DNA of 64,000 nt from an uncultured Gammaproteobacteria bacterium (lineage in GTDB: Bacteria > Patescibacteriota > Microgenomatia > Daviesbacterales > UBA10151): the NCBI GenBank assembly GCA_964500725.1, contig CAZCNP010000006.1, forward strand, positions 3,634 to 67,633, written 5' to 3'. Both the position numbers and the translations under genes were made by a program. Position 1 is the first letter of the stretch. Every line of letters begins with the position of its first letter. This document shows, piece after piece, positions 4,489 to 63,766 of this stretch. The notes below the pieces were generated by a model. That model did not search any database. It saw only the letters and a list, made by a program, of their open reading frames with translations, and was not told the origin of the DNA.

Positions 4489-4512
4489 CCTCCCAATTAG
4501 GGAGGTTTTTTT
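4489..4512 (+). terminator. intrinsic terminator after tkt
   Basis: CCTCCC-AATTA-GGGAGG followed by T7. Confidence 0.6.
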
Positions 4513-6532: not shown

Positions 6533-6634
6533 ATGTCAAAAGTTATTGTTGTAGATTTAAAAAAAGTTGAAATTTTAGTCAGCCTCCTTATTATGCTCCT
6601 TATTGGAGCATTTCTGGGAGGTCTTTTTAGATAA
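6533..6634 (+). CDS. candidate leader peptide / small hydrophobic peptide (33 aa): MSKVIVVDLKKVEILVSLLIMLLIGAFLGGLFR
   Basis: ORF covers segments 1 and 2 of the downstream four-segment attenuator. Run of Leu/Ile codons (CTC CTT ATT ATG CTC CTT ATT) at 6584-6604. No SD. Confidence 0.35.
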   Translation: MSKVIVVDLKKVEILVSLLIMLLIGAFLGGLFR

Positions 6635-6684
6635 AGTTTATCTAAAAGAAAGGAAATTAAGGCCTCCCAAATGGGAGGTTTTTT
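6582..6684 (+). promoter_or_regulatory. four-segment attenuator (two mutually exclusive hairpin sets) ahead of a three-gene hypothetical operon
   Basis: S1 CCTCC(6583-87):S2 GGAGG(6617-21)+UCUUUUU; S3 CCTCCC(6663-68):S4 GGGAGG(6673-78)+U6. S2 GGGAGG(6616-21) can instead pair S3 CCTCCC. Possible promoter TTGACA at 6473-6478. Confidence 0.45.
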
Positions 6685-17791: not shown

Positions 17792-18068
17792 GGGTGCCTA
17801 GGAAGTTAGTAAGCCAGATTCTGTTTCTCGATGATCATTTATCTAACGCTCCTTACTTCAACAAATGGGCAAGCAGCCCTGTTGGTTCTAGGATTGCAGC
17901 GGGGAGGATTGCCACGTTTCACCCGAGCATGACCCCGGTTCGTCACTGTTGCTCTAACTAGGCCTTACGGCTTCCAGCTTATGCTGGACACCCTGCTCTA
18001 TGCTGTCTGGACTTTCCTCTTAAGTAGTTTAAAGCTTCTTAAGCGATCATCCTTCTTCCTAGGCAGGT
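17792..18068 (-). ncRNA. rnpB: RNase P RNA (bacterial type-A-like, compact, about 277 nt)
   Basis: Minus strand GAGGAAAGUCCAGACAGCAUAGAGCAGGGUGUCCAGC (CR-I) ... GGGUGAAACGUGG ... ACAGAAUCUGGCUUACUAAC (CR-V). P1 is GCCUAGGAAG/CUUCCUAGGC. Confidence 0.85.
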
Positions 18069-26849: not shown

Positions 26850-27113
26850 AAAAAAGCCCTTGTAAATCCCTAAGATATTCTTAGAAACTTACAAGGGCCT
26901 TCAAAAGGCGGTGCCACCTTGCTTTAAGTTTTTACATAAAAAATCCTCCAATTACGGAGGAGTACTGTAGAAACTTAATCTTACAGCGCTCCGTTGCCGA
27001 CACGCTTATTGTATTTATACAGTTCAATTTCTGTCACAGTATTTCTTTGCCGACTGACCTGTGCAGCTTGTCTATTGCGATAGACTCAAACGCTTTTAAA
27101 ATATTTAATTGTT
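26850..27113 (-). promoter_or_regulatory. T-box-like leader RNA (copy 2) with canonical antiterminator (A1 / UGGNACC bulge / A2) overlapping an intrinsic terminator
   Basis: Minus strand CAAGG-UGGCACC-GCC-UUUUGAA-GGC-CCUUGU (26921-26891), then terminator GCCCUUGUAA...UUACAAGGGC+U6 (26898-26850). Stem III CCUCCGUAAUUGGAGG at 26959-26944. Confidence 0.55.
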
Positions 27114-31952: not shown

Positions 31953-32095
31953 AAAAAAACCTCTCAAACTATATGAGAGGTTTAAAGTTTTCCTGTACCA
32001 GACGGTACGGGACACATCTTCCTCTCAGGAATCTGGCACCTTAGGCTTTAAGGTTGCCGGCGTCCGGTAAAACCGGAGCACTCTTGATGTATTTT
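31953..32095 (-). promoter_or_regulatory. SAM-I (S-box) riboswitch with terminator, upstream of metK
   Basis: Minus strand AUCAAGAGUGCUCCGG...CCGGCAACC...AAGGUGCCAGAUUCCUGAGAGGAAGAUG. Terminator CCUCUCA...UGAGAGG+U7 at 31980-31953. Confidence 0.8.
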
Positions 32096-51048: not shown

Positions 51049-51300
51049 TTATTTGTAAACTCCTTGTCTATGCTCAACTTCAACTACTGTTAAAATATTC
51101 TCCTTTGTAGAAAAAATATAAATTACTCTGTAAGGCCAAGCATAAAGTTTGTATTGTCCTGCAAATTCACCCTTCAATTTTTCTCCAGCAAGCGGGTTAC
51201 TGGCTAATTTTTCAATAGCTTTGGCGATTTTCTTTTTAGCAGCTACTGGCAATTTTAAAAAAGACTTCTCAGCTGTCTTGGTAAAAATTACTTGCACCAT
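51049..51300 (-). CDS. type II toxin, RelE/ParE/YoeB family
   Basis: 83 aa. Overlaps the upstream antitoxin gene by 1 nt and has a RelE-like C-terminal pattern (..YRVIY....ILTVVEVEHR). Confidence 0.65.
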   Translation of the reverse strand: MVQVIFTKTAEKSFLKLPVAAKKKIAKAIEKLASNPLAGEKLKGEFAGQYKLYAWPYRVIYIFSTKENILTVVEVEHRQGVYK

Positions 51301-51563
51301 TAGAGACCCGCTTTTTTCTTAACCTCTTCCCAGGATACTACTCTGCCTTTTTTAATATCTTCGAGTCCCTTTTTAATCCCCATCACTAGTTTTTTATCAG
51401 ACATCACTTCCATGGTAGCCTCCCAGGAAGCAAGCTCTTCAGCGCTTATCAAAACAGCTTTTGTCTCACCTTTATTGGTAATAGCAATCTTTTTGCCACT
51501 GGAGGCCTCTTCAAGTAAATCATACAATGTATTTCGTGCGGTTGTTGCAGAAACTGTAATCAT
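51300..51563 (-). CDS. type II antitoxin, Phd/YefM family
   Basis: 87 aa. MITVSATTARNTLYDLLEEA...KAVLISAEELASWEATMEV is a typical YefM/Phd N-terminus. Confidence 0.7.
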   Translation of the reverse strand: MITVSATTARNTLYDLLEEASSGKKIAITNKGETKAVLISAEELASWEATMEVMSDKKLVMGIKKGLEDIKKGRVVSWEEVKKKAGL

Positions 51564-51617
51564 AAATTAACTGTACGCTTTTACGTACGTCTTGTCAAGA
51601 AGTAAATTTAAAATGAA

Positions 51618-53756
51618 TTAATGCTCAACTCTACCAGTAAAGCCTGAAGTTTCAATAATCTTTTGAGTAATATTTGAAGGCACTGGTTCATAGTGGTCTG
51701 CTTCCATATAATAGGTAGCTCTTCCTTGAGACATAGACCTTATAGCTGTTGCATATCCATGCATTTCTGCCAAAGGCACTAAAGCCATAACTACCCTGGC
51801 ATTACCTCTTGTTTCAGAAGATAAAATTTGAGCCCTTTTTGAAGACAGATCACCAATTATTTCTCCCAAAAATTCCTCAGGGGTGGTTACTTCCACCTTC
51901 ATAATAGGTTCAAGTAAAATCATATCTGCTTTTTTAGCTGCCTCAGACAAACCTAAAGAAGCAGCAATCTTAAAGGCTATCTCAGAGGAATCAACATCAT
52001 GGAATGAACCATCATAAACAGTAACTTTAATATCTGTTACAGGGTAGCCTGCCAAAATACCTGTATCTTCTTTTTCAATAACACCCTTTTCAATAGGAGG
52101 AATAAATTCCCTGGGAATAGCTCCACCCACAATTGCTGAGACAAATTCCCTGCCCTGTCCACGGGGCAGAGGTTCAATCTTGAGTAAACAATGGCCATAT
52201 TGACCACGTCCACCAGTTTGTCTTATGTATTTACCCTCACCTTCTGCAAATTTGGTAATAGTTTCTTTATAAGCAACTTGAGGCTGACCCACATTTGCCT
52301 CCAGCTTGAATTCTCTTTTCATTCTGTCAACCAGAATTTCAAGCTGTAGCTCGCCCATTCCAGCAATAATAGTTTGGCCAGTTTCAGCATCTGATTTAAC
52401 CCTAAAGGTTGGATCTTCTTCAGCTAGTCTTTGCAAGGCAAATCCTAATTTTTCCTGGTCAGATTTTGTTTTTGGCTCAATTGCCAAGGAAATAACTGGA
52501 TCAGGGAAGGAAATAGATTCTAAAATAATTGGAGCTGACTCGTCACACAAAGTATTACCCGTAATCGTGTCTTTTAATCCTACTGCTGCCACAATTTCTC
52601 CCGCGAAAGCCTCATCAATTTCCTCTCTATCATTAGCATGCATTAAAAGAAGTCTTCCGACTCTTTCGTTGACTTGCTTGGTAGAGTTATAAACGTAAGA
52701 ACCGCTCTTTAATGTTCCTGAATAAACTCTTATATAGGTCAACTTACCTACATGAGGGTCAACTTGAATTTTAAATGCCAAAGCAGCTAAAGGAGCGGCA
52801 GGATCACCCTTTCTTTCTTCTGACCCGCCTGTTTTTGGATTTATTCCACTTGTAAGATACACATCCTGAGGGGAAGGTAAATATTCAACAACAGCATCAA
52901 GCATCGGTTGAACACCTTTGTTCCGCAGAGAAGATCCAGCAAAAACTGGTACAATTTTGTTGGCAATAACAGCCTTTCTTAAGGCTTCTTTGAGCTCTGT
53001 AACTGTAATCTCTTCTCCGTTTAAATACTTTTCCATCAACACATCATTAGATCCTGCAATCTCTTCTACTAGTTTCTCGCGAGCAGCCTTAACCTCATCT
53101 GCCATCTCAACAGGAATTTCCACTTCATTAAACTTAGCGCCTGTTTGATCACCCTCCCAAATCAATGCTTTTTGAGTTAATAAATCTACTATGCCTTTAA
53201 AATCATTTTCTTTGCCTATCGGAAGATTGTAGGCTATAGCATTTGCTCCTAACCTGTCTCTCGCCGATTGAATAGTAGCTTGGAAATCAGCTCCTACTAC
53301 ATCCATTTTGTTAGAAAAGGCAATCAAAGGAACCTTATATTTATTAGCCTGTCTCCAAACTGTTTCTGTTTGAGACTGAACACCAGACGAAGAATCCAAA
53401 ACAATTACAGCTCCATCTAAAACCCTTAGAGACCTTTCTACTTCAGCTGTAAAATCAACGTGGCCTGGGGTATCAATTAAGTTAATTCTAATTTCATTAC
53501 CTTCAAAAAGTCCTCTTTTGACTGTCCAAAAAGCAGTGATAGCTGCAGAAACAATAGTAATTCCTCTTTCTCTTTCCTGCTCCATCCAGTCAGTAACTGT
53601 GGTTCCTTCGTCAATATTTCCAATTTTATAAGTTCTACCGGTGTAAAATAGAATTCTTTCTGTTGTGGTAGTTTTCCCAGCATCAATATGGGCAATAATC
53701 CCAATATTTCTAATTCTATCAAGCGGGAAGTCCCTTTTAGTCTTTTGTATAGCCAT
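51618..53756 (-). CDS. fusA: elongation factor G
   Basis: AHIDAGKTT and five-domain EF-G; 712 aa. Confidence 0.97.
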
Positions 53757-53983
53757 TATTTTCCTCCCTTTTCTAAATCTCTAATTATCTTTTTTATCTC
53801 TTCAATCCTAACTCTAGCAGTCTCTGCATCCTCTATGGCCATAGTATAGGCTGCATTTTCAGAAAGATCCCCTTCTTGGGCTGCCTGACCTTTTTTAAGG
53901 TAAATTGCCTCTAGATCACTCTCCAACTGCTTTAAGTTATCCTTCCACATTTTCAATTTTTCTTGTCTTAATTTGTCATCCAT
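53756..53983 (-). CDS. GreA N-terminal coiled-coil domain-only protein (about 75 aa)
   Basis: GDLSENAAY...[15 protein letters not shown] matches the GreA/GreB NTD signature. No FKBP-like CTD. Stop overlaps the fusA ATG (TAATG). Track start is TTG 54025; ATG 53983 sits just after a terminator hairpin. Confidence 0.55.
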
Positions 53984-53993
53984 ATTTTTTAAC

Positions 53994-54019
53994 AAAAAAC
54001 CTCCCTCAAACTTGGGAGG
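53994..54019 (-). terminator. intrinsic terminator-like hairpin between rpsG and the greA-N/fusA unit
   Basis: Minus strand CCUCCC-AAGUUUGA-GGGAGG followed by U6. Confidence 0.5.
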
Positions 54020-54044
54020 CCACAAGTAGATATTGTACTATGAA

Positions 54045-54248
54045 TTAGTCTACGTTTCCAGCAGCAATGGCTGCACGGTCACTTCTGACAATATCTGCAG
54101 GATTTAATACTCTAGCCAAAATTGCAGCTGAAATAGGATCCATACGCTCAAAAGCATCAAGCCTATCTACAATATCAGATCCATCAAGAATTCCCACCGC
54201 CGCTGCTAAATCTACTATTGGTCTTAAAACAGAATTTTCTACTGCCAT
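54045..54248 (-). CDS. hypothetical Ala-rich small protein (67 aa); weak support
   Basis: ORF only. No SD, but composition is protein-like. Located between rpsG and the terminator. Confidence 0.25.
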   Translation of the reverse strand: MAVENSVLRPIVDLAAAVGILDGSDIVDRLDAFERMDPISAAILARVLNPADIVRSDRAAIAAGNVD

Positions 54249-54283
54249 ATACTTATATTACCACCCGAAGTCAAGAGAGAAAT

Positions 54284-54760
54284 TTACCAGCGGAAGTGAG
54301 AAAATGCCCTATTGGCATTTGCAATTTTTTGAGTATCTTCTTTTTTCTTTATTGCCAGTCCAGTATTATTGGCAGCATCCATTAATTCTGCTGCCAGCTT
54401 TTTATCAAATGAATGATATTCTTTATTGGATTTTGATCTTGCTCCAGCTAAAATCCATCTGATTGCCAAGGCTTCTTTTCTATCACCACGCACTTCAACA
54501 GGCACTTGATAAGATGCCCCTCCTACTCTCCTTGGCCTTACCTCCATCTTTGGAGAAACATTTGCTATAGCTTTTTCCAAAACAGCTAGTGGCTCTTGTT
54601 TGGATTGTTCTTTTATTACCTCTAAAGCCTGATAGACTAATTTTTCTGCCACTGATTTCTTACCACTTACCATAATTTTATTAATCATTCTATTTATCAG
54701 CTTTGAGCCATAAACAGGATCTTCAACTAATATTCTTTTTTCTGCTTTTTTGCTTCGCAT
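54284..54760 (-). CDS. rpsG: 30S ribosomal protein S7
   Basis: S7 core. Confidence 0.95.
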   Translation of the reverse strand: MRSKKAEKRILVEDPVYGSKLINRMINKIMVSGKKSVAEKLVYQALEVIKEQSKQEPLAVLEKAIANVSPKMEVRPRRVGGASYQVPVEVRGDRKEALAIRWILAGARSKSNKEYHSFDKKLAAELMDAANNTGLAIKKKEDTQKIANANRAFSHFRW

Positions 54761-54781: not shown

Positions 54782-55246
54782 TTATGCTGTTGGGGCTGCT
54801 GGTTGTGGAACTGCTGCAGCTCTTGGCGCCGGCCCGCCGCCACCCTTTTTAGTACCATATCTTGATCTGCCTCGTTTCCTGCCTACCACACCTGCTAAAT
54901 CAAATTTACCTCTGACTAAATGATATTTAACTCCAGGCAAATCTTTCACCCTGCCACCTCTTACTAAAACTATTCCATGCTCTGCCAAAGAATGTCCCTC
55001 TCCTTGAATATAGGCTGTTACCTCAGTTCTGTTAGACAACCTTACCCTGGCTACTTTTCTCAAAGCTGAGTTAGGCTTTTTAGGAGTCATTGTTTTAACC
55101 AAAGTTACCACGCCCCGTTTTTGTGGATTAAAATCTTGAGTGTACCGTCTATCTTTAGCATTAAAGCTGCGTCGCAGAGCTGTAGCTTTAATCTTTTTTG
55201 CTAAATTTTTTCTACCTTTTCTTACCAATTGATTAATTGTAGGCAT
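54782..55246 (-). CDS. rpsL: 30S ribosomal protein S12 (internal insertion and Gly/Pro/Ala-rich C-terminal tail)
   Basis: [11 protein letters not shown] ... [10 protein letters not shown] ... plus tail [20 protein letters not shown]. Confidence 0.95.
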
Positions 55247-55248
55247 CT

Positions 55249-58200
55249 TTAACTTTCCATCTTAGCCCTTTCTGTACTAGTTGGGATAAGTCGGCCAATT
55301 ATAACATTTTCTTTCAAACCAATCAGCTTATCAACCTTGCCTGAAATAGCTGCATCTGACAGTACTGAGGTAGTTTCTTGGAATGAAGCAGCAGAAAGGA
55401 AGCTTTCTGTTTGCAGAGAAGCCCTGGTGATTCCTAAAATTACCACCTCTGCTGTTGCAGCTTCGCCACCGCTTGCCAATACCCGTTTATTTTCCTCTTC
55501 AAAACGGATTTTATCCACAATTTCACCCGGCAGCAGATTGGTATCTCCTTGAGTTTCTACCCTGACTTTATCTGACATTTTTCTAACTATTACCTCAAAA
55601 TGCTTTTCGTTAATAGGCACACCTTGAGATTCGTAAACTGATCTTACTTCATCAACAATATAGCGTTGCGCTGATCTTAATCCCTGAATCCTTAAGATTT
55701 CTTTGACATCAATATGGCCTGAGGCTAAAATTGTTCCTGCATCAATCAGTTGGCCTTCCTCAACTAGTAATGCTGAGGTAGCAGGGATAATATATTCTCT
55801 TTCTTCGTGTGGCTTTTGTGTAGTTTTAACCCTAACTCTGGTTCCGAGCTCAGTTTCTAATACTGAAACCTTACCAGCAATCTCTGACATTGGAGAGGCC
55901 ACCTTAGGAATACGGGCTTCAAATAATTCTTCCACTCTTGGTAAACCTTGAGTAATATCCAAACCAATAATTCCTCCTGTGTGGAAAGTGCGCATGGTAA
56001 GTTGTGTGCCTGGCTCACCGATTGCTTGAGCAGCTACTACCCCTACAGGGGTACCAATTTTAACAAGTTGTCTGGTAGTCAAATCAAAACCATAACAGGT
56101 GCTACAAATCCCGTAGCGGGCTTCACAAGTCAAAGGCGAACGGGCGGAGACTTTGGTTACTCCTGCTTTCAAAATCTGAGAGACAACCTCTTCAGCTAAA
56201 AAGACACCTTTTTTAATCATTACTTTTCTAGTTTTTGGTTCTAAAATATTATCTGCTACCATTCTACCCAAGAGTTTCTCTCTGGCTGTAGTAAAGCTGT
56301 TTTTGGATAAGTCGTAGTCTAATGATAGATCAGTTCCGCAATCCTCTATTCTAACAATGACATCATGCGCAACATCAACCAGTCTTCGGGTCAAATAACC
56401 TGCATCAGCTGTTTTCAAAGCTTTATCTGCCACACCTTTTCTGGCTCCTCTAGCTGAAGTAAAGTATTCAAATACTGACAAGCCTTGTCTGTAATTTGAT
56501 TTAGTGGGTAGGTCAACAATTTTTCCTGTTGGATCAGTAGATAAACCTCTCATAGCAGAAAGCTGTTTTGCTTGATCTCTAGATCCTCTTGCTCCTGCCT
56601 CAACCATCATTCTGATTGGATTTTGCATACCTAAGTAGTCCCAGGTAGCGTTTGCCAGCTCTTCTGTGACTTTAATCCATACCATTTGTGAAAGCTGGGA
56701 TTTTTCTTGTGGAGTAATTAAACCTTTGGCTGTATTTGCCTCGATCTTTTCAATCTCTTGAACAGCCTTATCTAAATATTCCTGCTTATTAGGTACCACT
56801 TTTGCATCAAAGATAGAAATTGAAATACCAGCAATAGTGGCCCCCCAAAAACCGATAGTCTTAATGTTATCAATAAGCTCAGTAGCTTTTTCTTTACCTA
56901 AAGACTCCATAGCTTTGAGGATAATATCTCTAATGGTAAATCCTTTGATAACCGAGTTGATAAACTGCATCTTTTCAGGCAGCACCTGATTAAACAAAAT
57001 TCTACCCACAGATGTTTCGATAACCTCATTATTAATTCTCGTTTGGATTTTTTGTTGAACCCTAATTTTACCCAAGGCAAAAGCACGAACAGCATCTTCT
57101 GGAGTAATAAAGAATTTAGGTTTATCATTTCCGCTGTTCTCCTCCAGCGAGGTTAAGTAATAACATCCTAAAGCCATCTCTCTATTTGGTACGGTAATTG
57201 GCTGGGCATTAGCAGGACCAAAAATATTTTCTTTGGCCATCATCAAATTTTTGGCCTCTTCTTGAGCCTTAGTGGATAAAGGCACATGGATTGCCATTTG
57301 ATCTCCATCAAAATCAGCATTAAACCCTGCGCAAATACAAGGATGGATCGCGATAGCATTACCATCAACCAAGACCGGGTAGAATGCCTGAATACCCAAC
57401 CTATGCAAAGTAGGAGCACGGTTGATTAATATTGGGTGGCCAGTAATAATTTCTTCCAAAATATCCCAAACTTCAGAAGGTCGAAGCTCCAAAACATTTT
57501 TTGCACCCTTTACATTAGATGCCAAACCTCTGGCTATCATTTCCCTCAAAACAAAAGGCTTAAACATTTCCAAAGCCATCTCTTTAGGAAGTCCTACCTG
57601 ATCCAGTCTTAATCTTGGTCCAACAACTATAACTGATCTTCCTGAATAATCCACTCTTTTACCTAACAGATTCTGCCTAAATCGCCCTTGCTTACCGCGT
57701 AACATATCTGACAGAGAACGCAGAGCGTGAGCCACCACCGGACCGCCCCGTCTTGAAGTTCTAGATGAAGCATCAATCAAGCTATCAACAGCTTCTTGTA
57801 ACATTCTTTTTTCATTTCTTAAAATTATCTCCGGAGCGCCAAGATTAATTAATTTATTCAAACGGTTGTTTCTATTTATAACTCTTCGGTAAAGATCATT
57901 CAGGTCTGAAGTAGCAAACCTGCCTCCTGGCAGTTGTACCATTGGTCTTAAATCTGGAGGTAAGACTGGCAAAACACGCAACACTAACCAGTCGGGATTA
58001 ATTCCTGACGAACGCATTCCTTCAATTACTCTCAATCTTTTAGTAGCTTTAATATGTTTTTGTCCTGTGGATTTTCTAACCTCTTCCCTTAAATTGGCAG
58101 CCAGTTTATCCAGATCTAACTTTTGCAGAATGTCCAGCAAAGCTTCTGCTCCCATGCCAACCTTAACAAAATCTGAAACTCCATATTCTGAGAGCTTATA

Positions 58201-58941
58201 GTACTCTTCCTCTGACAATAGCTTCATAGGCACTACAGATTTAACAAGATCAGAAACTACCTTATAAATTCCTTCCAACTGACCACTTTCTATTACTAAA
58301 CCGTCTCTCATCTTTTGAATTGCGCGTCTACCTTTTAGTTGCATCTCAGAAGCTTCTAGTTCAAATTTTTCTTTTTCCAATTTCTTCTTCAGGCCTTCAA
58401 TATCTTTTTTCAGTTGAGCCTCAAAACCTTTAATATTCTTTTCCAGATTCGCTTTAGCTTCCTCCTGCTTTGCTTGTAAATCTTTTTCTAACTTTTGCAA
58501 AGCTTCAGTTTTACCATTTGGATCAATAGCAGTAACCACATAAGAGGCAAAATAAACCACCGCTTCTAAATTCTTAGGAGAAATATCCAATATCAAAGAA
58601 AGTTTTGAAGGAGCGCCTTTAACAAACCAGCTATGGGCAACTGGCGCAGCCAAAGTAATATGACCCATCCTCTCGCGTCTGACTTTACTTTGGGTAACCT
58701 CAACTCCACATTTATCACAAATCACACCTCTGAACCTAATTCTTTTGTATTTACCACAATAACACTCATAATCTTTAGTTGGACCAAAGATATTTTCTGA
58801 AAACAATCCATCTTTTTCTGCTTTTAGGGTTCGATAATTTATAGTTTCTGGTTTCGTGACTTCACCAAAAGACCAGCTTCTTATTTGTTCTGGAGAAGCA
58901 ACTGTCAATCTTAGTGATTCAAAATCTAGTAAATCATTCAT
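55249..58941 (-). CDS. rpoC: DNA-directed RNA polymerase subunit beta'
   Basis: Zn finger CxxC...CxxC and NADFDGD; 1230 aa. Confidence 0.97.
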
Positions 58942-61900
58942 TTTGTCTCCTTTTCTTCCATCTGAGCACTTGCATCTATTACTTCAAAAGAGCTATCTGG
59001 AGCTTCCAGTTCTGCTTCCTCGGCAGTCGACTTCATCCCCAAAGCCTCCCCCAGTTGAGCTACTTCTGCAGTAATTTCTTTTTTCTCTTCTGTCTCCTGG
59101 ACCTCTTGCACAATCTTGGCTCCCAGAGTCTCCACATTTAGATTTAGAGCCTGCAATTCTTTGACCAAAACCTTAAAAGATTCTGGAATCAAAGCTTGAG
59201 GAATATCAATTCCTTTAACAATGGCTTCAAAAGCCTTTGCCCTACCAACCACATCATCTGATTTAATAGTCAACATTTCTTGTAAAATATTGGCAGCTCC
59301 ATATGCTTCTAGCGCCCAAACTTCCATCTCTCCCAAACGCTGACCTCCCATTTGGGCCTTACCGCCAAGTGGCTGTTGAGTAACTAGGGAGTAAGGACCA
59401 GTGGAACGAGCGTGAATCTTTTCTTCCACCATGTGGATCAATTTCAAGATGTAATTTATGCCTACAACAATAGGATTTCCGAATGGCTCTCCTGTTCTAC
59501 CATCATAAAGTTGAGTTTTACCGTCAGCAGAATAACCAGCTTTTTTAAGCTCTTCGATTAACTTATCTTCAGGGATTTTCTCAAAAACAGGAGCAGCTAT
59601 CTTATATCCTAATTTCTTGCCGGCAAATGCCCAGTGAGTTTCCAAAAGCTGCCCTAAGTTCATTCTGGATAAAACTGATAGGGGAGAAATAATAATATCA
59701 ATAGGTGTACCGTCTTTAAGATGAGGCATATCAGCAACTGGTACTATTCTGGAAATAACTCCCTTATTACCATGACGGCCAGCTAATTTGTCTCCGGCAG
59801 TCACTTTTCTAAGCTGCGCAACTTTGACTTTAATTCTCATCAATGTCCCTGTATCAAGCTCATCTCCTTCATCACGCGAAAGAATTTGCACCCCAATTAC
59901 TGTGCCTCGCTCGCCATGAGGAACACGAAGCGATGTGTCTCTAACTTCTTTGGCTTTTTCTCCAAAAATGGCTCTAAGTAGTCTTTCCTCAGCAGTAAGC
60001 TCTGTTTCTCCTTTAGGCTGGACTTTACCTACCAAGATATCATTTGGCCCTACTTCTGCTCCAATTCTGACAATTCCTTTATCATCCAAATTTACCAAAG
60101 CCTCCTCTGACACATTTGGAATATCGGAAGTAAGCTCTTCTGGCCCTAATTTAGTCTCTACTACATCAACCTCATATTCTTCAATATGAATTGAGGTTAA
60201 AACATCATCTTTAACTAATCTATCTGAAATAACAATAGCATCCTCATACCCCAAACCATCAAAACTCATGTAAGCAATCAACAAATTCTGACCTAAAGCT
60301 AACTCCCCATTTTCGCAGGCTGCGCCATCAACTAATAAATCACCTTTTTTCACTTTATTCCCCACATTTACTACTGGTCTTTGAGAATAGCAAGTGCCTT
60401 GAGGTGAATGAACGAACTTTTTAATATCAATTTTAATTTCTTCCTTTTTGGTCTTTAAGATAATATTTTTTCCGTCTGCATATTTGATTACCCCGTCATC
60501 AGAAGCTCTAACTACTCTGCCCATATTATCAGCAACTACTCTTTCCATACCTGTACCAGAAATAGGCGCAGAAGGTCTGAGCAGGGGAACTGCCTGACAC
60601 TGCATTTGGGTACCCATCAAAGCTCTGTTGGCATCATCATTGGCCAAAAACGGAATCAAAGATGCTGAGGTACCAAAAATTTGTTGTGGGGAAATATCAA
60701 TTAGGGAAATATCTTTAGTCGGACCTTCAAAAAAGCTACCTTGATAACGGGTTGGGACTCTATCATCCAAAATATATCCTTTATCGTCTATACTTATAGT
60801 TGCCTCAGTAATATGATAGTCCTCCTCATCATCTGCAGTCAGATATGTTACCTCATCAGTTACCTTAGGTTTATCTTTTTGCATTACCACTTTTCGGTAT
60901 GGCGTTTCCAAGAAACCATATTCGTTAATTCGGGCATAAAGAGCCAGATAGGTAACCAGTCCTATGTTTTGACCCTCAGGGCTTCTGATAGGATCAATTC
61001 TACCGTATTGAGAATGATTAATATCACGAACTGAAAAAGAAGCTCTATCCCTGGTAATCCCACCTGCTCCCATAACAGAAAGTCTTCTTAAATGATCTAG
61101 TTCAGACAAAGGATTTACCTGATCTAAAATTGATGAAAGTTGGGAAGAACGGAAAAACTCATTAATTGCAGCAATGACTGGTTTAGCATTAATCAAACCT
61201 CCAGGTGAAACTTCTTGATCAACAGCGGTTAAACTCATTCTTTCCTTAATAATACGCTCAAGTCTTAAGACTCCAATTCTAAAAGCATTCTGTTGAACTA
61301 ACTCTCCTGCGCATCTGACACGTCTGTTTGCCAGATGATCTATATCATCCAGCCTTCCTTCCCCTTTGCTTAACTTAATTAGGTATATTAAAGTGGCAAT
61401 AATATCTTCTTTGGTTAAAATCCAATTTTCAGGTACATTAGGTAAATCTAAATTCAATCTTTTGTTAACTTTATATCTACCAACCTTTATAAGGTTATAT
61501 CTTCTGGGGTTAAAAAACATTCCATCAAGCAAAGCTTTTGCATTATCTAAGACTACTGGATCCCCTGGGCGCATTTTTCTAAAAATTTCCAAAAGCGCTT
61601 CCTCTGTATTAGCAGTTGGATCTTTAGCAAGGGTTGTCTCAATAAATTTATCCTCACCGTTATCAACATCTTTAAATAAGTTGGCAATTGACTCATTATC
61701 AGAAAAGCCTAAAGCACGAAGTAGTGTGGTAGCGGCAAATTTCCTTCTTCTATCAATTTTAGCTGTTAATACTCCACCTCGGGTGATAGAAAATTCCAAC
61801 CATGATCCTCTGTAAGGACGAATCTCTGCCGAGAATAGTCTTCTTCCAGTAATTGGATCATCAGATGCTTGGAAAAATACTCCTGGTGAGCGGACTAGTT

Positions 61901-62306
61901 GATTAATGATAACCCTCTCTACACCATTGATAATAAATGTACCTTTATCAGTCATCTGAGGAATATCGCCTAAAAAGACATCTTGTTTGTATCTTTGTCC
62001 TGTTTGTTTGTTAGTTAAAATTGCCTCAATTTTTAAAGGAGCATCATAGGTGATACCTTTTTCTTTAGCTGCCTCAGAAGTATACTTAGCTTTACCGAAA
62101 TAAAAAGACCCTAGCTCTAGGGTCCAATTTTTGCCTGTAAAATCCTCAACAGGAGAAATTTCTTTTAAGACTTCAGCGATTCCAGTTTGCAAAAACCAAT
62201 TGTATGAGTCTAATTGAATTTGAATTAAATTAAGTTCAGGAACTAAAAAAGGTGCTTTGCTCCAATATTTACGTATATTTGTTACATTAGATGCGCTAAT
62301 CGACAT
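58938..62306 (-). CDS. rpoB: DNA-directed RNA polymerase subunit beta
   Basis: 1122 aa with conserved rif-region and active-site blocks. Overlaps rpoC (ATGA). Confidence 0.97.
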   Translation of the reverse strand: MSISASNVTNIRKYWSKAPFLVPELNLIQIQLDSYNWFLQTGIAEVLKEISPVEDFTGKNWTLELGSFYFGKAKYTSEAAKEKGITYDAPLKIEAILTNKQTGQRYKQDVFLGDIPQMTDKGTFIINGVERVIINQLVRSPGVFFQASDDPITGRRLFSAEIRPYRGSWLEFSITRGGVLTAKIDRRRKFAATTLLRALGFSDNESIANLFKDVDNGEDKFIETTLAKDPTANTEEALLEIFRKMRPGDPVVLDNAKALLDGMFFNPRRYNLIKVGRYKVNKRLNLDLPNVPENWILTKEDIIATLIYLIKLSKGEGRLDDIDHLANRRVRCAGELVQQNAFRIGVLRLERIIKERMSLTAVDQEVSPGGLINAKPVIAAINEFFRSSQLSSILDQVNPLSELDHLRRLSVMGAGGITRDRASFSVRDINHSQYGRIDPIRSPEGQNIGLVTYLALYARINEYGFLETPYRKVVMQKDKPKVTDEVTYLTADDEEDYHITEATISIDDKGYILDDRVPTRYQGSFFEGPTKDISLIDISPQQIFGTSASLIPFLANDDANRALMGTQMQCQAVPLLRPSAPISGTGMERVVADNMGRVVRASDDGVIKYADGKNIILKTKKEEIKIDIKKFVHSPQGTCYSQRPVVNVGNKVKKGDLLVDGAACENGELALGQNLLIAYMSFDGLGYEDAIVISDRLVKDDVLTSIHIEEYEVDVVETKLGPEELTSDIPNVSEEALVNLDDKGIVRIGAEVGPNDILVGKVQPKGETELTAEERLLRAIFGEKAKEVRDTSLRVPHGERGTVIGVQILSRDEGDELDTGTLMRIKVKVAQLRKVTAGDKLAGRHGNKGVISRIVPVADMPHLKDGTPIDIIISPLSVLSRMNLGQLLETHWAFAGKKLGYKIAAPVFEKIPEDKLIEELKKAGYSADGKTQLYDGRTGEPFGNPIVVGINYILKLIHMVEEKIHARSTGPYSLVTQQPLGGKAQMGGQRLGEMEVWALEAYGAANILQEMLTIKSDDVVGRAKAFEAIVKGIDIPQALIPESFKVLVKELQALNLNVETLGAKIVQEVQETEEKKEITAEVAQLGEALGMKSTAEEAELEAPDSSFEVIDASAQMEEKETK

Positions 62307-62433: not shown

Positions 62434-62808
62434 TCAAGTAGTCAAAAGTGGGGACAAAAAGTATGCTCGAGCTTCTCTTTCATCCTGCTTCATTTGTCTT
62501 ATAAGATCATTCGCGGATCTAAATTGCTGATTTTCGCGAATCTTCTTAATTAATTTAACAGATATCCAATGATTATAAATATTCTGGTTGAAATCCAGAA
62601 TATAAGTTTCTGATAAGAACTTTTTTTCATCAAAAGTTTTAACTGTACCAATAAAAGTAAGTGAAAAATATATGTTATTTTTAATTTTAGTTTTGGAAAT
62701 ATATACACCTTCTGGAATTTTTTTACTTAAATTTACATTAGCTGTAGGAAATCCTAATTTTTTTCCTCTAAGATTTGCTTTTCTGACTTTCCCCCAAAAC
62801 CTATACAT
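62434..62808 (-). CDS. riboflavin kinase (monofunctional; RibF C-terminal-domain-like)
   Basis: GKVRKANLRGKKLGFPTANV matches the flavokinase signature. Confidence 0.6.
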   Translation of the reverse strand: MYRFWGKVRKANLRGKKLGFPTANVNLSKKIPEGVYISKTKIKNNIYFSLTFIGTVKTFDEKKFLSETYILDFNQNIYNHWISVKLIKKIRENQQFRSANDLIRQMKQDEREARAYFLSPLLTT

Positions 62809-62809
62809 A

Positions 62810-63766
62810 TTATGGATTATTGGCTACATTTTGGTCATGTTCTTCCAAAGTTTTAGCATAATATGAGTTTCCTTTTAAATTATGATAATAATATAAATAA
62901 GGAGTATTTGGATTAGCATTAGCCACCGCTTCTAAAGAAGACAGCGAGGGATTAGCAATAGGGGCAGGCGGTAAACCCTTATATAAATAGGTATTAAAGG
63001 GGGATTCTATTTTTTTATCCTCTAGGGTTAAATGCCTTTTCCACCAGCTTTTTTCTTGTGGTTGATATCCTAGAATATATTGCAGGGTAGCATCAGCATT
63101 TAAACCCATATCAATCTTAAACCTTTTCAGCAATATACTAGCCACCTCTGTTCTAACTTTGTCTGACCTGGCTTCCCTCTCAACAATCGAGGCTAAAATT
63201 ACTCCTTGGGCTTCAGTTAATCCTTTAGAACGAATTTGCAACCTCAACTCCTCTGTAAATCTTTTATCAAATGTCTTTTTTAAAATATTTACAACATATT
63301 CTACAGTTGCCTCTTTAGGGAACAGATAGGTATCAGGAAACATATATCCTTCTTTGGCAGTTTTTAGAAATTCTTTTTTGTCAATTTTTAGCTCTTTATT
63401 TAATTTATCTGCCATCTCCTCAATACGCCAACCCTCAATTAAAGTCACCCAAATATCTTCACTGCCTGTTTGCAAAGCTTCTATTAACTTAGGCACAGAC
63501 ATTGAGGGAGAAAGCTTATGAGATCCCGCCTGGAGTTTACTTGTTAAATTATTCTGTTTGACATAAACTTTAAATACCAGTTCTGACCTGATCAAACCCT
63601 CATCTTTTAATTTTTTGGCAATAGTAGAAACCCCAGCCCCTTTTTCTATAACAAAAACTTTAGAAGACGCATCAGTTGAAACTGCAGATAATTGAGCATC
63701 CCACCAACCTCTTATCAAAAAGAATAAAATTATCAAAATTAAAAAACCCCAAATTATTTTTTTCAT
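62810..63766 (-). CDS. mltG: endolytic murein transglycosylase MltG (YceG-like)
   Basis: N-terminal TM and PFNTYLYKGLPPAPIANP YceG motif. Confidence 0.8.
   Translation of the reverse strand: MKKIIWGFLILIILFFLIRGWWDAQLSAVSTDASSKVFVIEKGAGVSTIAKKLKDEGLIRSELVFKVYVKQNNLTSKLQAGSHKLSPSMSVPKLIEALQTGSEDIWVTLIEGWRIEEMADKLNKELKIDKKEFLKTAKEGYMFPDTYLFPKEATVEYVVNILKKTFDKRFTEELRLQIRSKGLTEAQGVILASIVEREARSDKVRTEVASILLKRFKIDMGLNADATLQYILGYQPQEKSWWKRHLTLEDKKIESPFNTYLYKGLPPAPIANPSLSSLEAVANANPNTPYLYYYHNLKGNSYYAKTLEEHDQNVANNP

Follow-up and report, generated by a model that had tools for sequence, protein, structure and literature searches.

Factors of the GreA/GreB type (PF03449 plus PF01272) pair an N-terminal antiparallel coiled coil with a C-terminal globular domain. 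Residues D41 and E44 of Escherichia coli GreA contact the catalytic Mg2+ of RNA polymerase (RNAP), and the globular domain binds the beta' rim helices (PMC7527559, PMC4598747); bacterial secondary-channel factors have been reviewed as sharing a coiled coil and an RNAP-binding globular domain (PMC4598747). A gene of simpler design, for which the name greN is coined here, was identified in a 64,000-nucleotide (nt) stretch of DNA (the window; GenBank GCA_964500725.1, contig CAZCNP010000006.1, positions 3,634 to 67,633) deposited as an uncultured Gammaproteobacteria bacterium. The gene (53983..53756 of the window, stop included, minus strand) encodes 75 amino acids (aa) that form the Gre N-terminal coiled coil alone, as seen from its PF03449 match, its homologues, and an AlphaFold2 (AF2) model, and it lies immediately 5' of fusA, which codes for elongation factor G (EF-G). 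A protein of identical sequence has been deposited under Candidatus Daviesbacteria (Microgenomates group of the candidate phyla radiation, CPR), where it is annotated as hypothetical.

GreN shares with GreA and GreB a homologous antiparallel coiled coil, the GDLxENAxY tip, and its two acidic residues. It differs in having neither the linker nor the rim-helix-binding C-terminal domain, and in being fixed in the str operon with its gene overlapping fusA, whereas the full-length GreA of Shapirobacteria is encoded elsewhere. Gfh1 of Thermus/Deinococcus and Rv3788 of Mycobacterium tuberculosis likewise act in the secondary channel and have a coiled coil of the Gre type whose tip is acidic, which makes them possible functional analogues should GreN be a competitor; unlike GreN, they have a C-terminal domain and need it for tight binding (PMC4598747). 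GreN, without that domain, does not show their two-domain architecture, and the pH-dependent reorientation of the C-terminal domain that serves Gfh1 as a switch (PMC4598747) is impossible in it. A GreA N-terminal domain has also been made in the laboratory (Koulich et al. 1997/1998, cited in PMC7527559), and PMC7527559 describes a plasmid, pHM1885, with a stop after codon 75 and assigns the antipause and cleavage functions to this domain. The boundaries of the engineered fragment are essentially those of GreN, but the fragment is artificial, whereas greN occurs naturally and shows strong purifying selection. Literature searches found no Gre-type protein of coiled-coil-alone, fusA-linked form and no paper pairing GreA with Patescibacteria or Microgenomates, and a single-domain Gre fixed in the str operon is absent from the secondary-channel factors in PMC4598747. 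The Gre domain itself is known; a conserved protein that consists of it alone and has a fixed place in the str operon appears to be new.

Identity and Fold of GreN

An earlier note on this DNA, made without database searches, had proposed a gene limited to the Gre N-terminal domain between rpsG and fusA, and profile searches bore this out. The Pfam GreA_GreB_N model (PF03449) matched GreN above its gathering cut-off (E = 1.3e-7, 32.1 bits versus 24.5) over profile positions 5-68 of 71, and the Pfam scan gave no match in GreN to the Gre C-terminal domain (PF01272). A hidden Markov model (HMM) of full-length GreA sequences aligned over positions 5-70 (E = 1.7e-19), and the NCBIfam greA models aligned via their N-terminal halves alone, at 36 bits or less versus cut-offs of 139-234. 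The open reading frame (ORF) had been given as 75-90 aa; it extends to 89 aa if read from a TTG (54025..53756), and because the best 120 homologues all begin MD.KL the true start was placed at the ATG at 53983. GreN stops only a few residues away from the point at which the N-terminal domain of E. coli GreA ends (~residue 75).

The AF2 model, run with a 25-sequence alignment, is the antiparallel coiled coil that had been anticipated, with helices at residues 3-36 and 44-71, a turn at 37-43 (EGDLSEN), and a mean predicted local distance difference test score of 83.8. The top Foldseek matches in the PDB were 1grj (E. coli GreA) and 9a7t_B, a model of GreA in complex with RpoB, superposed at a root-mean-square deviation of 1.3 A over 60-62 columns with query-normalised template modeling scores of 0.72-0.74. 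As is usual for helical hairpins, the E-values of these matches are not significant (0.11 for 1grj), and seryl-tRNA synthetase arms and other coiled coils were matched too. DksA2 appeared among the matches solely as a generic helical hairpin, and neither Pfam nor NCBIfam gave a match in GreN to the DksA/TraR zinc-finger domain (PF01258).

Alignment and the AF2 model place codons 36-42 (QEGDLSE; 53857..53877, minus strand) at the inter-helix turn, with D39 and E42 as the acidic tip. In the alignment their counterparts in E. coli GreA are D41 and E44 (GDLSENAAY versus GDLKENAEY), and the segment E37-Y46 is invariant in the 25-sequence alignment of diverse members. Close to where helix 1 begins, all short forms, distant subfamilies included, have a K-[LI]-x-x-W motif that full-length GreA lacks. 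GreN is a member of the Gre lineage reduced to the N-terminal coiled coil.

Conservation, Selection, and Linkage to fusA

The protein database held 378 GreN homologues, and the best 120 of the 378 are all 73-103 aa long, mostly 74 aa; some members of the family already carry the JGI label "GreA/GreB family." A profile search of 1.84 billion cluster representatives returned 51 proteins at E <= 0.001, of which the best ~30 were short, with full-length GreA (~150 aa) appearing from E ~1e-5 onward. Since this search separates them from full-length GreA, the short Gre proteins constitute a narrow, distinct family. Over 351 pairs of greN sequences the median pN was 0.15 and the median pS 0.78 (saturated), giving an omega of ~0.08 where it could be estimated.

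A scan of one genome per species returned 28 genomes of the Daviesbacteria type and the divergent locus L034 (49% identity), and greN stands immediately 5' of fusA in every one; several of the 28 bear the wrong label "uncultured Gammaproteobacteria." The same order occurs on metagenome contigs and with the distant members P0136 (locus L072, 43% identity) and P0172. In the window, the greN stop TAA (53758-53756) and the fusA ATG (53756-53754) share one A, confirming the TAATG overlap reported before. A GGGAGG Shine-Dalgarno (SD) sequence of fusA lies inside the last greN codons (53763..53768, minus strand), 6 nt before the fusA ATG, in line with the mostly 5-9 nt SD spacing of genes in the window. 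Among 32 related loci, 26 have greN and fusA spaced by -1 to +4 nt, and the rpsG-greN distance ranges from 27 nt to ~3.5 kb; because the latter spacing varies, the invariant linkage is that of greN with fusA and not with rpsG. An insert of 118-141 nt with TTTTCAA-like repeats, conserved in three genomes (L008 4229-4369, L011 3118-3235, and L016 4229-4348), splits greN from fusA and breaks the start/stop overlap; a small mobile element and an RNA are both conceivable identities for it.

The shortness of greN and its NCBI annotation as a hypothetical protein would suit a spurious ORF or a full-length greA in decay, a reading to which we attach next to no probability. Against it stand the omega of ~0.08 with saturated synonymous sites, the uniformly short best 120 homologues, and a position kept in ~30 species and in lineages at 43-49% identity. 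No remnant of a C-terminal domain was detected in any frame of the window with the HMM of full-length GreA; on 34 related loci, full-length GreA HMMs (one of them built from 120 Microgenomates GreA) gave matches to the N-terminal domain alone, and a full-length greA broken by a frameshift was seen at this site in none of the relatives. In most genomes there is no room for a C-terminal domain, because fusA starts -1 to +4 nt from the greN stop. Of the two findings that the earlier note had named as fatal to its proposal, a lack of Gre similarity and a degraded full-length gene in relatives, neither was made, and selection, homologues, and synteny refute the remnant or spurious-ORF reading.

Other CPR groups have ordinary full-length GreA. 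In the related Microgenomates group Shapirobacteria, this is a 149-aa family (1,804 proteins) encoded away from the str operon. No full-length GreA or Gre C-terminal domain was found in ~78 kb of the present contig (the 64-kb window plus ~14 kb). Homologue searches starting from full-length CPR GreA returned Parcubacteria-type or Shapirobacteria-type proteins, with no protein named Daviesbacteria among the best 120 of each search, which is not evidence of absence; among the same 120 matches per search, no contig was shared with the greN-bearing contigs. The neighborhood of the Shapirobacteria greA has no synteny in the window, where a sortase gene lies ~1.9 kb 5' of rpoB with no greA beside it. 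On two other Microgenomates contigs (including L202, 8961-11333), a full-length greA lies a few kb from a sortase gene, which may be coincidence.

Predicted Promoter and Hairpin Upstream of greN

The leader of E. coli greA is the closest described regulatory arrangement. There, two-thirds of the transcripts from strong promoters terminate in the leader, active GreA raises termination through GraL, and the leader mediates GreA autoregulation (PMC2836576, PMC6829880). The greN locus resembles it in having a promoter, here predicted, followed within a few nt by an intrinsic terminator 5' of a gre gene. It differs in a leader shorter than the 19 nt that precede the terminator structure in E. coli, in showing no visible sequence similarity and no Rfam match, in a hairpin of the generic CCUCC/GGAGG type of its genome, and in a unit that also includes fusA.

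The hairpin with its U6 tract, noticed before, is present at 53994..54021 on the minus strand. It follows the stop of orf67, a 67-aa ORF, by 23 nt and precedes the greN ATG by 10 nt. It reads GGCCUCCC-aaguuuga-GGGAGGUU, an 8-bp stem with five G-C pairs and an 8-nt loop, and has a minimum free energy of -13.4 to -13.8 kcal/mol (z = -2.1 versus shuffles). A terminator scan also found it, and it shows the sequence features of an intrinsic terminator, namely a G+C-rich stem-loop, a U-tract, and a position 3' of a same-strand gene. The pattern CCTCCC-N(3-12)-GGGAGG occurs three times in the window versus 0.01 expected by chance, and about half of the ~10 perfect-stem terminator candidates in the window have CCUCC/GGAGG arms. 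By these sequence counts, the greN hairpin is of this genome's standard predicted terminator type. Of the hairpins with CCUCC/GGAGG (or CCUCUC/GAGAGG) arms other than that of greN, four belong to this half, at 4489-4512 (+), 6583-6628 (+), 6663-6684 (+), and 26938-26960 (-), and another lies at 31957-31983 (-). They consist of an anti-SD-like 5' arm and an SD-like 3' arm followed by a U-tract, several of them just 5' of the next start codon, and the terminator 3' arm may double as the ribosome-binding site of the next gene.

In 29 loci a hairpin followed by 4-7 T is conserved 5' of greN, and its folding energy lies between -9.5 and -16 kcal/mol. The stem has two variants, CCUCCC/GGGAGG and GCCUCCU/AGGGGGC, which MAFFT sets one column out of register; inspection by eye found one compensatory change of C-G to U-A and one of U-A to U-G. 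In 27 of the 29 loci, a predicted near-consensus sigma-70-type promoter, TTGACT-17-TAATAT, ends 9-11 nt before the stem, with conservation that extends to its spacer (TTTAGGATCAAAA). Transcription in these relatives is predicted to start 2-6 nt before the stem. Because of this conserved promoter just upstream, the hairpin can be read as the 5' leader terminator of a separate greN-fusA unit. Promoter and hairpin are jointly present in the 29 loci and jointly absent in four (L006, L023, L029, and L033), in which greN directly follows rpsG or the module is missing. The window and locus L030 keep a weaker promoter, TGGAAA-17-TACAAT (54032..54060, minus strand) and TGGAAA-17-TATAAT, respectively. 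The former is the positional homologue of the relatives' TTGACT-17-TAATAT; in both, the -35 has been replaced by the 3' end of orf67 and now falls within its last codons, and the -10 element of the window lies 10 nt upstream of the hairpin.

The earlier note had suggested that the terminator attenuates read-through from rpsG into fusA. The hairpin stands, and a simple attenuator role does not, given the promoter 9-11 nt upstream of it in 27 loci. Rfam gave no family for the region, whether the gathering threshold or an E-value limit of 10 was applied, and a leader terminator is not consistently present 5' of full-length Microgenomates greA. A metagenome scan with the promoter-spacer 16-mer identified 11 loci, of 120 listed, that also have a downstream hairpin. 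These are loci of the greN type, the greN start (ATG GAx ...) being visible in 10 of the 11 and the remaining one (L160), with a longer leader, being unconfirmed. The spacer motif was considered as a regulon-wide operator and rejected, as the other 109 of the 120 listed loci have no hairpin and are probably chance 16-mers.

Proposed Role of GreN and Alternative Explanations

GreN is likely, if only just, a functional minimal secondary-channel Gre factor co-expressed with EF-G. In the mechanism that we infer, its coiled coil would enter the RNAP secondary channel and bring the acidic tip D39/E42 to the active site, where it would stimulate cleavage of backtracked RNA and so the restart of arrested complexes. 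A low intrinsic affinity is expected because GreN has no globular domain to dock on the beta' rim helices. This could be offset by co-transcription and translational coupling with fusA, leading to high expression, EF-G being typically among the most abundant bacterial proteins, and also by the K-[LI]-x-x-W motif at the base of helix 1. In most relatives, the greN-fusA transcript would start at its own sigma-70-type promoter and meet the terminator ~4 nt in; the leader terminator would also block read-through from upstream genes and may permit GraL-like feedback control. A more far-reaching version is offered tentatively and is regarded as doubtful: GreN would be the only Gre-type factor of Daviesbacteria, an anchor-free cleavage factor docking via K-L-K-M-W at the coiled-coil base, with its abundance hard-wired to EF-G synthesis and a Gre-sensitive leader terminator of its own.

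Known systems and the locus itself both supply objections to a minimal cleavage factor. In E. coli, specific RNAP binding is reported to need both Gre domains, and the over-expressed GreA N-terminal domain does not have the lethality of over-expressed GreA (PMC7527559); if both domains are needed there, GreN would have to compensate. Gfh1 and Rv3788 have a conserved acidic tip and yet inhibit (PMC4598747), so that the tip is no proof of cleavage activity, and since the divergent members P0136 and P0141 lack DxxE, a catalytic tip is not universally required. At the locus, the GGAGG of the window hairpin lies 16 nt from the greN ATG, leaving greN without a well-placed SD. An efficient terminator directly after the promoter would starve fusA and tuf, so that termination must be partial or the hairpin must have another role.

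The earlier note had suggested a competitor of the Gfh/DksA kind; with a tip motif that is that of the cleavage-stimulating Gre factors, this is only one of two possible readings. GreN would then be a non-catalytic occupant of the secondary channel, similar to Gfh1, Rv3788, or DksA, that tunes initiation or elongation, for example by tying RNAP behavior to translation-factor synthesis. The inhibition of catalysis by Gfh1 and Rv3788 despite their acidic tips (PMC4598747) speaks for such an occupant, as do the degenerate tips of P0136, which holds the str-operon position, and of P0141. The 149-aa GreA of Shapirobacteria at another locus indicates that a canonical factor may coexist, freeing GreN for regulation. 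We nevertheless consider a competitor unlikely, since the core family keeps the GDLSENAAY cleavage-factor signature without exception in the 25-sequence alignment, the potency of known competitors comes from the high-affinity C-terminal domain (PMC4598747) that GreN is missing, and ~78 kb of this contig hold no full-length GreA. A role outside transcription, as a coiled-coil partner of EF-G or the ribosome or as a chaperone-like protein, is very improbable. It would explain why the sole invariant genomic link is to fusA and not to rpoBC, and it draws on the generic nature of helical hairpins, the non-significant Foldseek values, and the matches to seryl-tRNA synthetase arms. A ribosomal role would leave unexplained an invariant tip that is the Gre motif for the RNAP active site; moreover, the Pfam and NCBIfam matches are specific to Gre factors, and other short subfamilies have unrelated neighborhoods, one after ppa and one next to a CBASS operon.

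For the hairpin, partial leader termination that also insulates greN-fusA from variable upstream cargo is favored by analogy with the E. coli leader, and Gre-dependent autoregulation of the greN-fusA leader is a speculation drawn from the same analogy. Alternatively, the hairpin may mainly be no regulated attenuator and act as a 5'-terminal stem-loop against decay or as an anti-SD/SD mask of the greN ribosome-binding site, terminating upstream read-through alone. That the stem begins ~4 nt from the predicted transcription start in relatives agrees with this, as do the high fusA and tuf expression needed, which argues against efficient termination, the 3' arm GGGAGG, which in roughly every second locus is 9-14 nt away from the greN ATG and could act as its SD, and the hairpins of the same type just before start codons elsewhere in the window. 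Neither a stabilizer nor an SD mask needs the 4-7 T that follow the stem in all 29 loci, and the hairpin lies 20-147 nt from the ATG in many loci and 16 nt from it in the window, versus the genome-typical 5-9 nt. This alternative is a possible account of the hairpin, though on balance a rather unlikely one. The roles of attenuator, stabilizer, and SD mask are not mutually exclusive, and termination may go together with stabilization or, where the spacing is short, with masking of the SD. That the hairpin serves mainly to sequester the SD was rejected, and this role was judged secondary, since the distance from hairpin to greN ATG ranges over 3-147 nt across loci.

If GreN acts as a minimal Gre factor, one bacterial lineage or more may be able to do without the anchoring domain, which raises the question of whether specificity and affinity are attained via abundance, a new motif, or an altered channel rim. 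The greN-fusA link would tie a transcription-fidelity or restart factor to elongation-factor expression, an unusual transcription-translation coupling. GreN would also give structural and engineering studies of the secondary channel a minimal scaffold of natural origin, and it would add a lineage-specific trait for the poorly characterized transcription machinery of the CPR/Patescibacteria. In the far-reaching version, with GreN as the sole Gre factor of these organisms, transcription proofreading or restart capacity and translation elongation capacity would be set from one promoter.

The orf67 Gene and the rpsG-greN Interval

The interval between rpsG and greN holds orf67 (54248..54045, minus strand), which is called as a gene in the NCBI record and whose reality had been doubted in the earlier note. 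The doubt appears misplaced: the ORF is intact and of equal length in two diverged relatives, L030 (66% identity) and L011 (39-41%), its omega lies between 0.46 and 0.66, and in the distant pairs the second codon position varies least. An HMM from these three sequences was run against 4,621 ORFs, and the best non-seed matches were weak and to small ORFs, all but one of them 5' of greN; those at the same position came from L016, L019, L015, and L031. No Pfam or NCBIfam match to orf67 was found. An extended -10 element (TGgTAATAT, 54255..54263, minus strand; TGnTAATAT overall) stands exactly 6 nt before the orf67 ATG in all three copies, none of which has an SD, and the orf67 mRNA is for these reasons predicted to be leaderless. 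The orf67 product is probably a real, fast-evolving small protein, and the window hairpin downstream of its stop is predicted to serve also as its terminator.

Directly 3' of the rpsG stop, a TTGACT (54269..54274, minus strand) appears collinear with the -35 of the greN promoter in relatives, as judged by comparing the window (TAAatttctctcTTGACTT) with L017 (TAAatttctatTTGACTTTTAGG) around this element. This collinearity suggests that orf67 lies within a once-contiguous greN promoter.

The rpsG-greN interval is also an insertion hot spot in L008, L009, L010, L015, L019, L021, L022, L024, L027, L028, and L032. The cargo includes a recurrent ~175-aa gene of the histidine-phosphatase family (PF00300), Gp49/helix-turn-helix (HTH) and Phd/ParE toxin-antitoxin pairs, and small ORFs.

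Other Short Gre Proteins

Short greN-like genes outside the str operon were found in tandem at L074 (4746-5225) and L075 (3121-3600), coding for 77 and 74 aa with 51% and 40% identity to GreN; next to them lie an HTH gene, a gene of the PLD family, and a CBASS-like operon with CD-NTase/Cap15. P0136 (L072, 5001-5219) has the tip NLGDDSA instead of GDLSEN and keeps both the rpsG-x-greN-fusA position and the promoter-hairpin module, and P0141 has the tip GEDEDSA, in which DxxE is lost; from their tips, both are possible non-catalytic derivatives. A separate subfamily of 77-91 aa, also limited to the Gre N-terminal domain, has the tip GDWHENAEFEDAE (GDWHENAEF type) and comprises P0137 (L201, 668-901), P0138, P0140, P0146, and P0147. 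At the one locus seen, the P0137-type gene overlaps the end of the inorganic pyrophosphatase gene (ppa).

Gene Order and Neighboring Features

The gene order of the classical str operon (rpsL-rpsG-fusA-tuf) is retained at this locus. It differs from the classical operon in the insertion of greN directly before fusA, in a promoter-terminator module and variable cargo that part rpsG from greN-fusA, and, in this window, in a toxin-antitoxin pair between fusA and tuf. All genes of the locus are on the minus strand, where rpoB (62306..58938) and rpoC (58941..55249) are followed by rpsL (ribosomal protein S12, 55246..54782), rpsG (ribosomal protein S7, 54760..54284, the 5' neighbor of orf67 and greN), and, after greN, fusA (53756..51618, 712 aa), beyond which lie tuf and rpsJ. 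The S12 of the window has a C-terminal extension of ~20-25 aa rich in Gly, Pro, and Ala, and the S12 tail of L034 is similar in kind and different in sequence. Genes for a sortase, ruvX, yceG, and a riboflavin kinase (62434-63766, minus strand) lie 5' of rpoB instead of the usual rplKAJL cluster.

The toxin-antitoxin pair (51049-51563, minus strand) has as its antitoxin a Phd/YefM protein (51563..51300; PF02604, E = 2e-13). The ORF that overlaps it (51300..51049, 83 aa) resembles toxins of the RelE/ParE type and is a putative toxin. A promoter-like TTGACA-17-TACAGT (51598..51570) lies just upstream of the pair. Elsewhere in the window, a bacterial class A RNase P RNA was identified at 17794-18062 on the minus strand (125 bits); it has 269 nt versus the 367 positions of the model, a short form consistent with a reduced CPR-type RNA.

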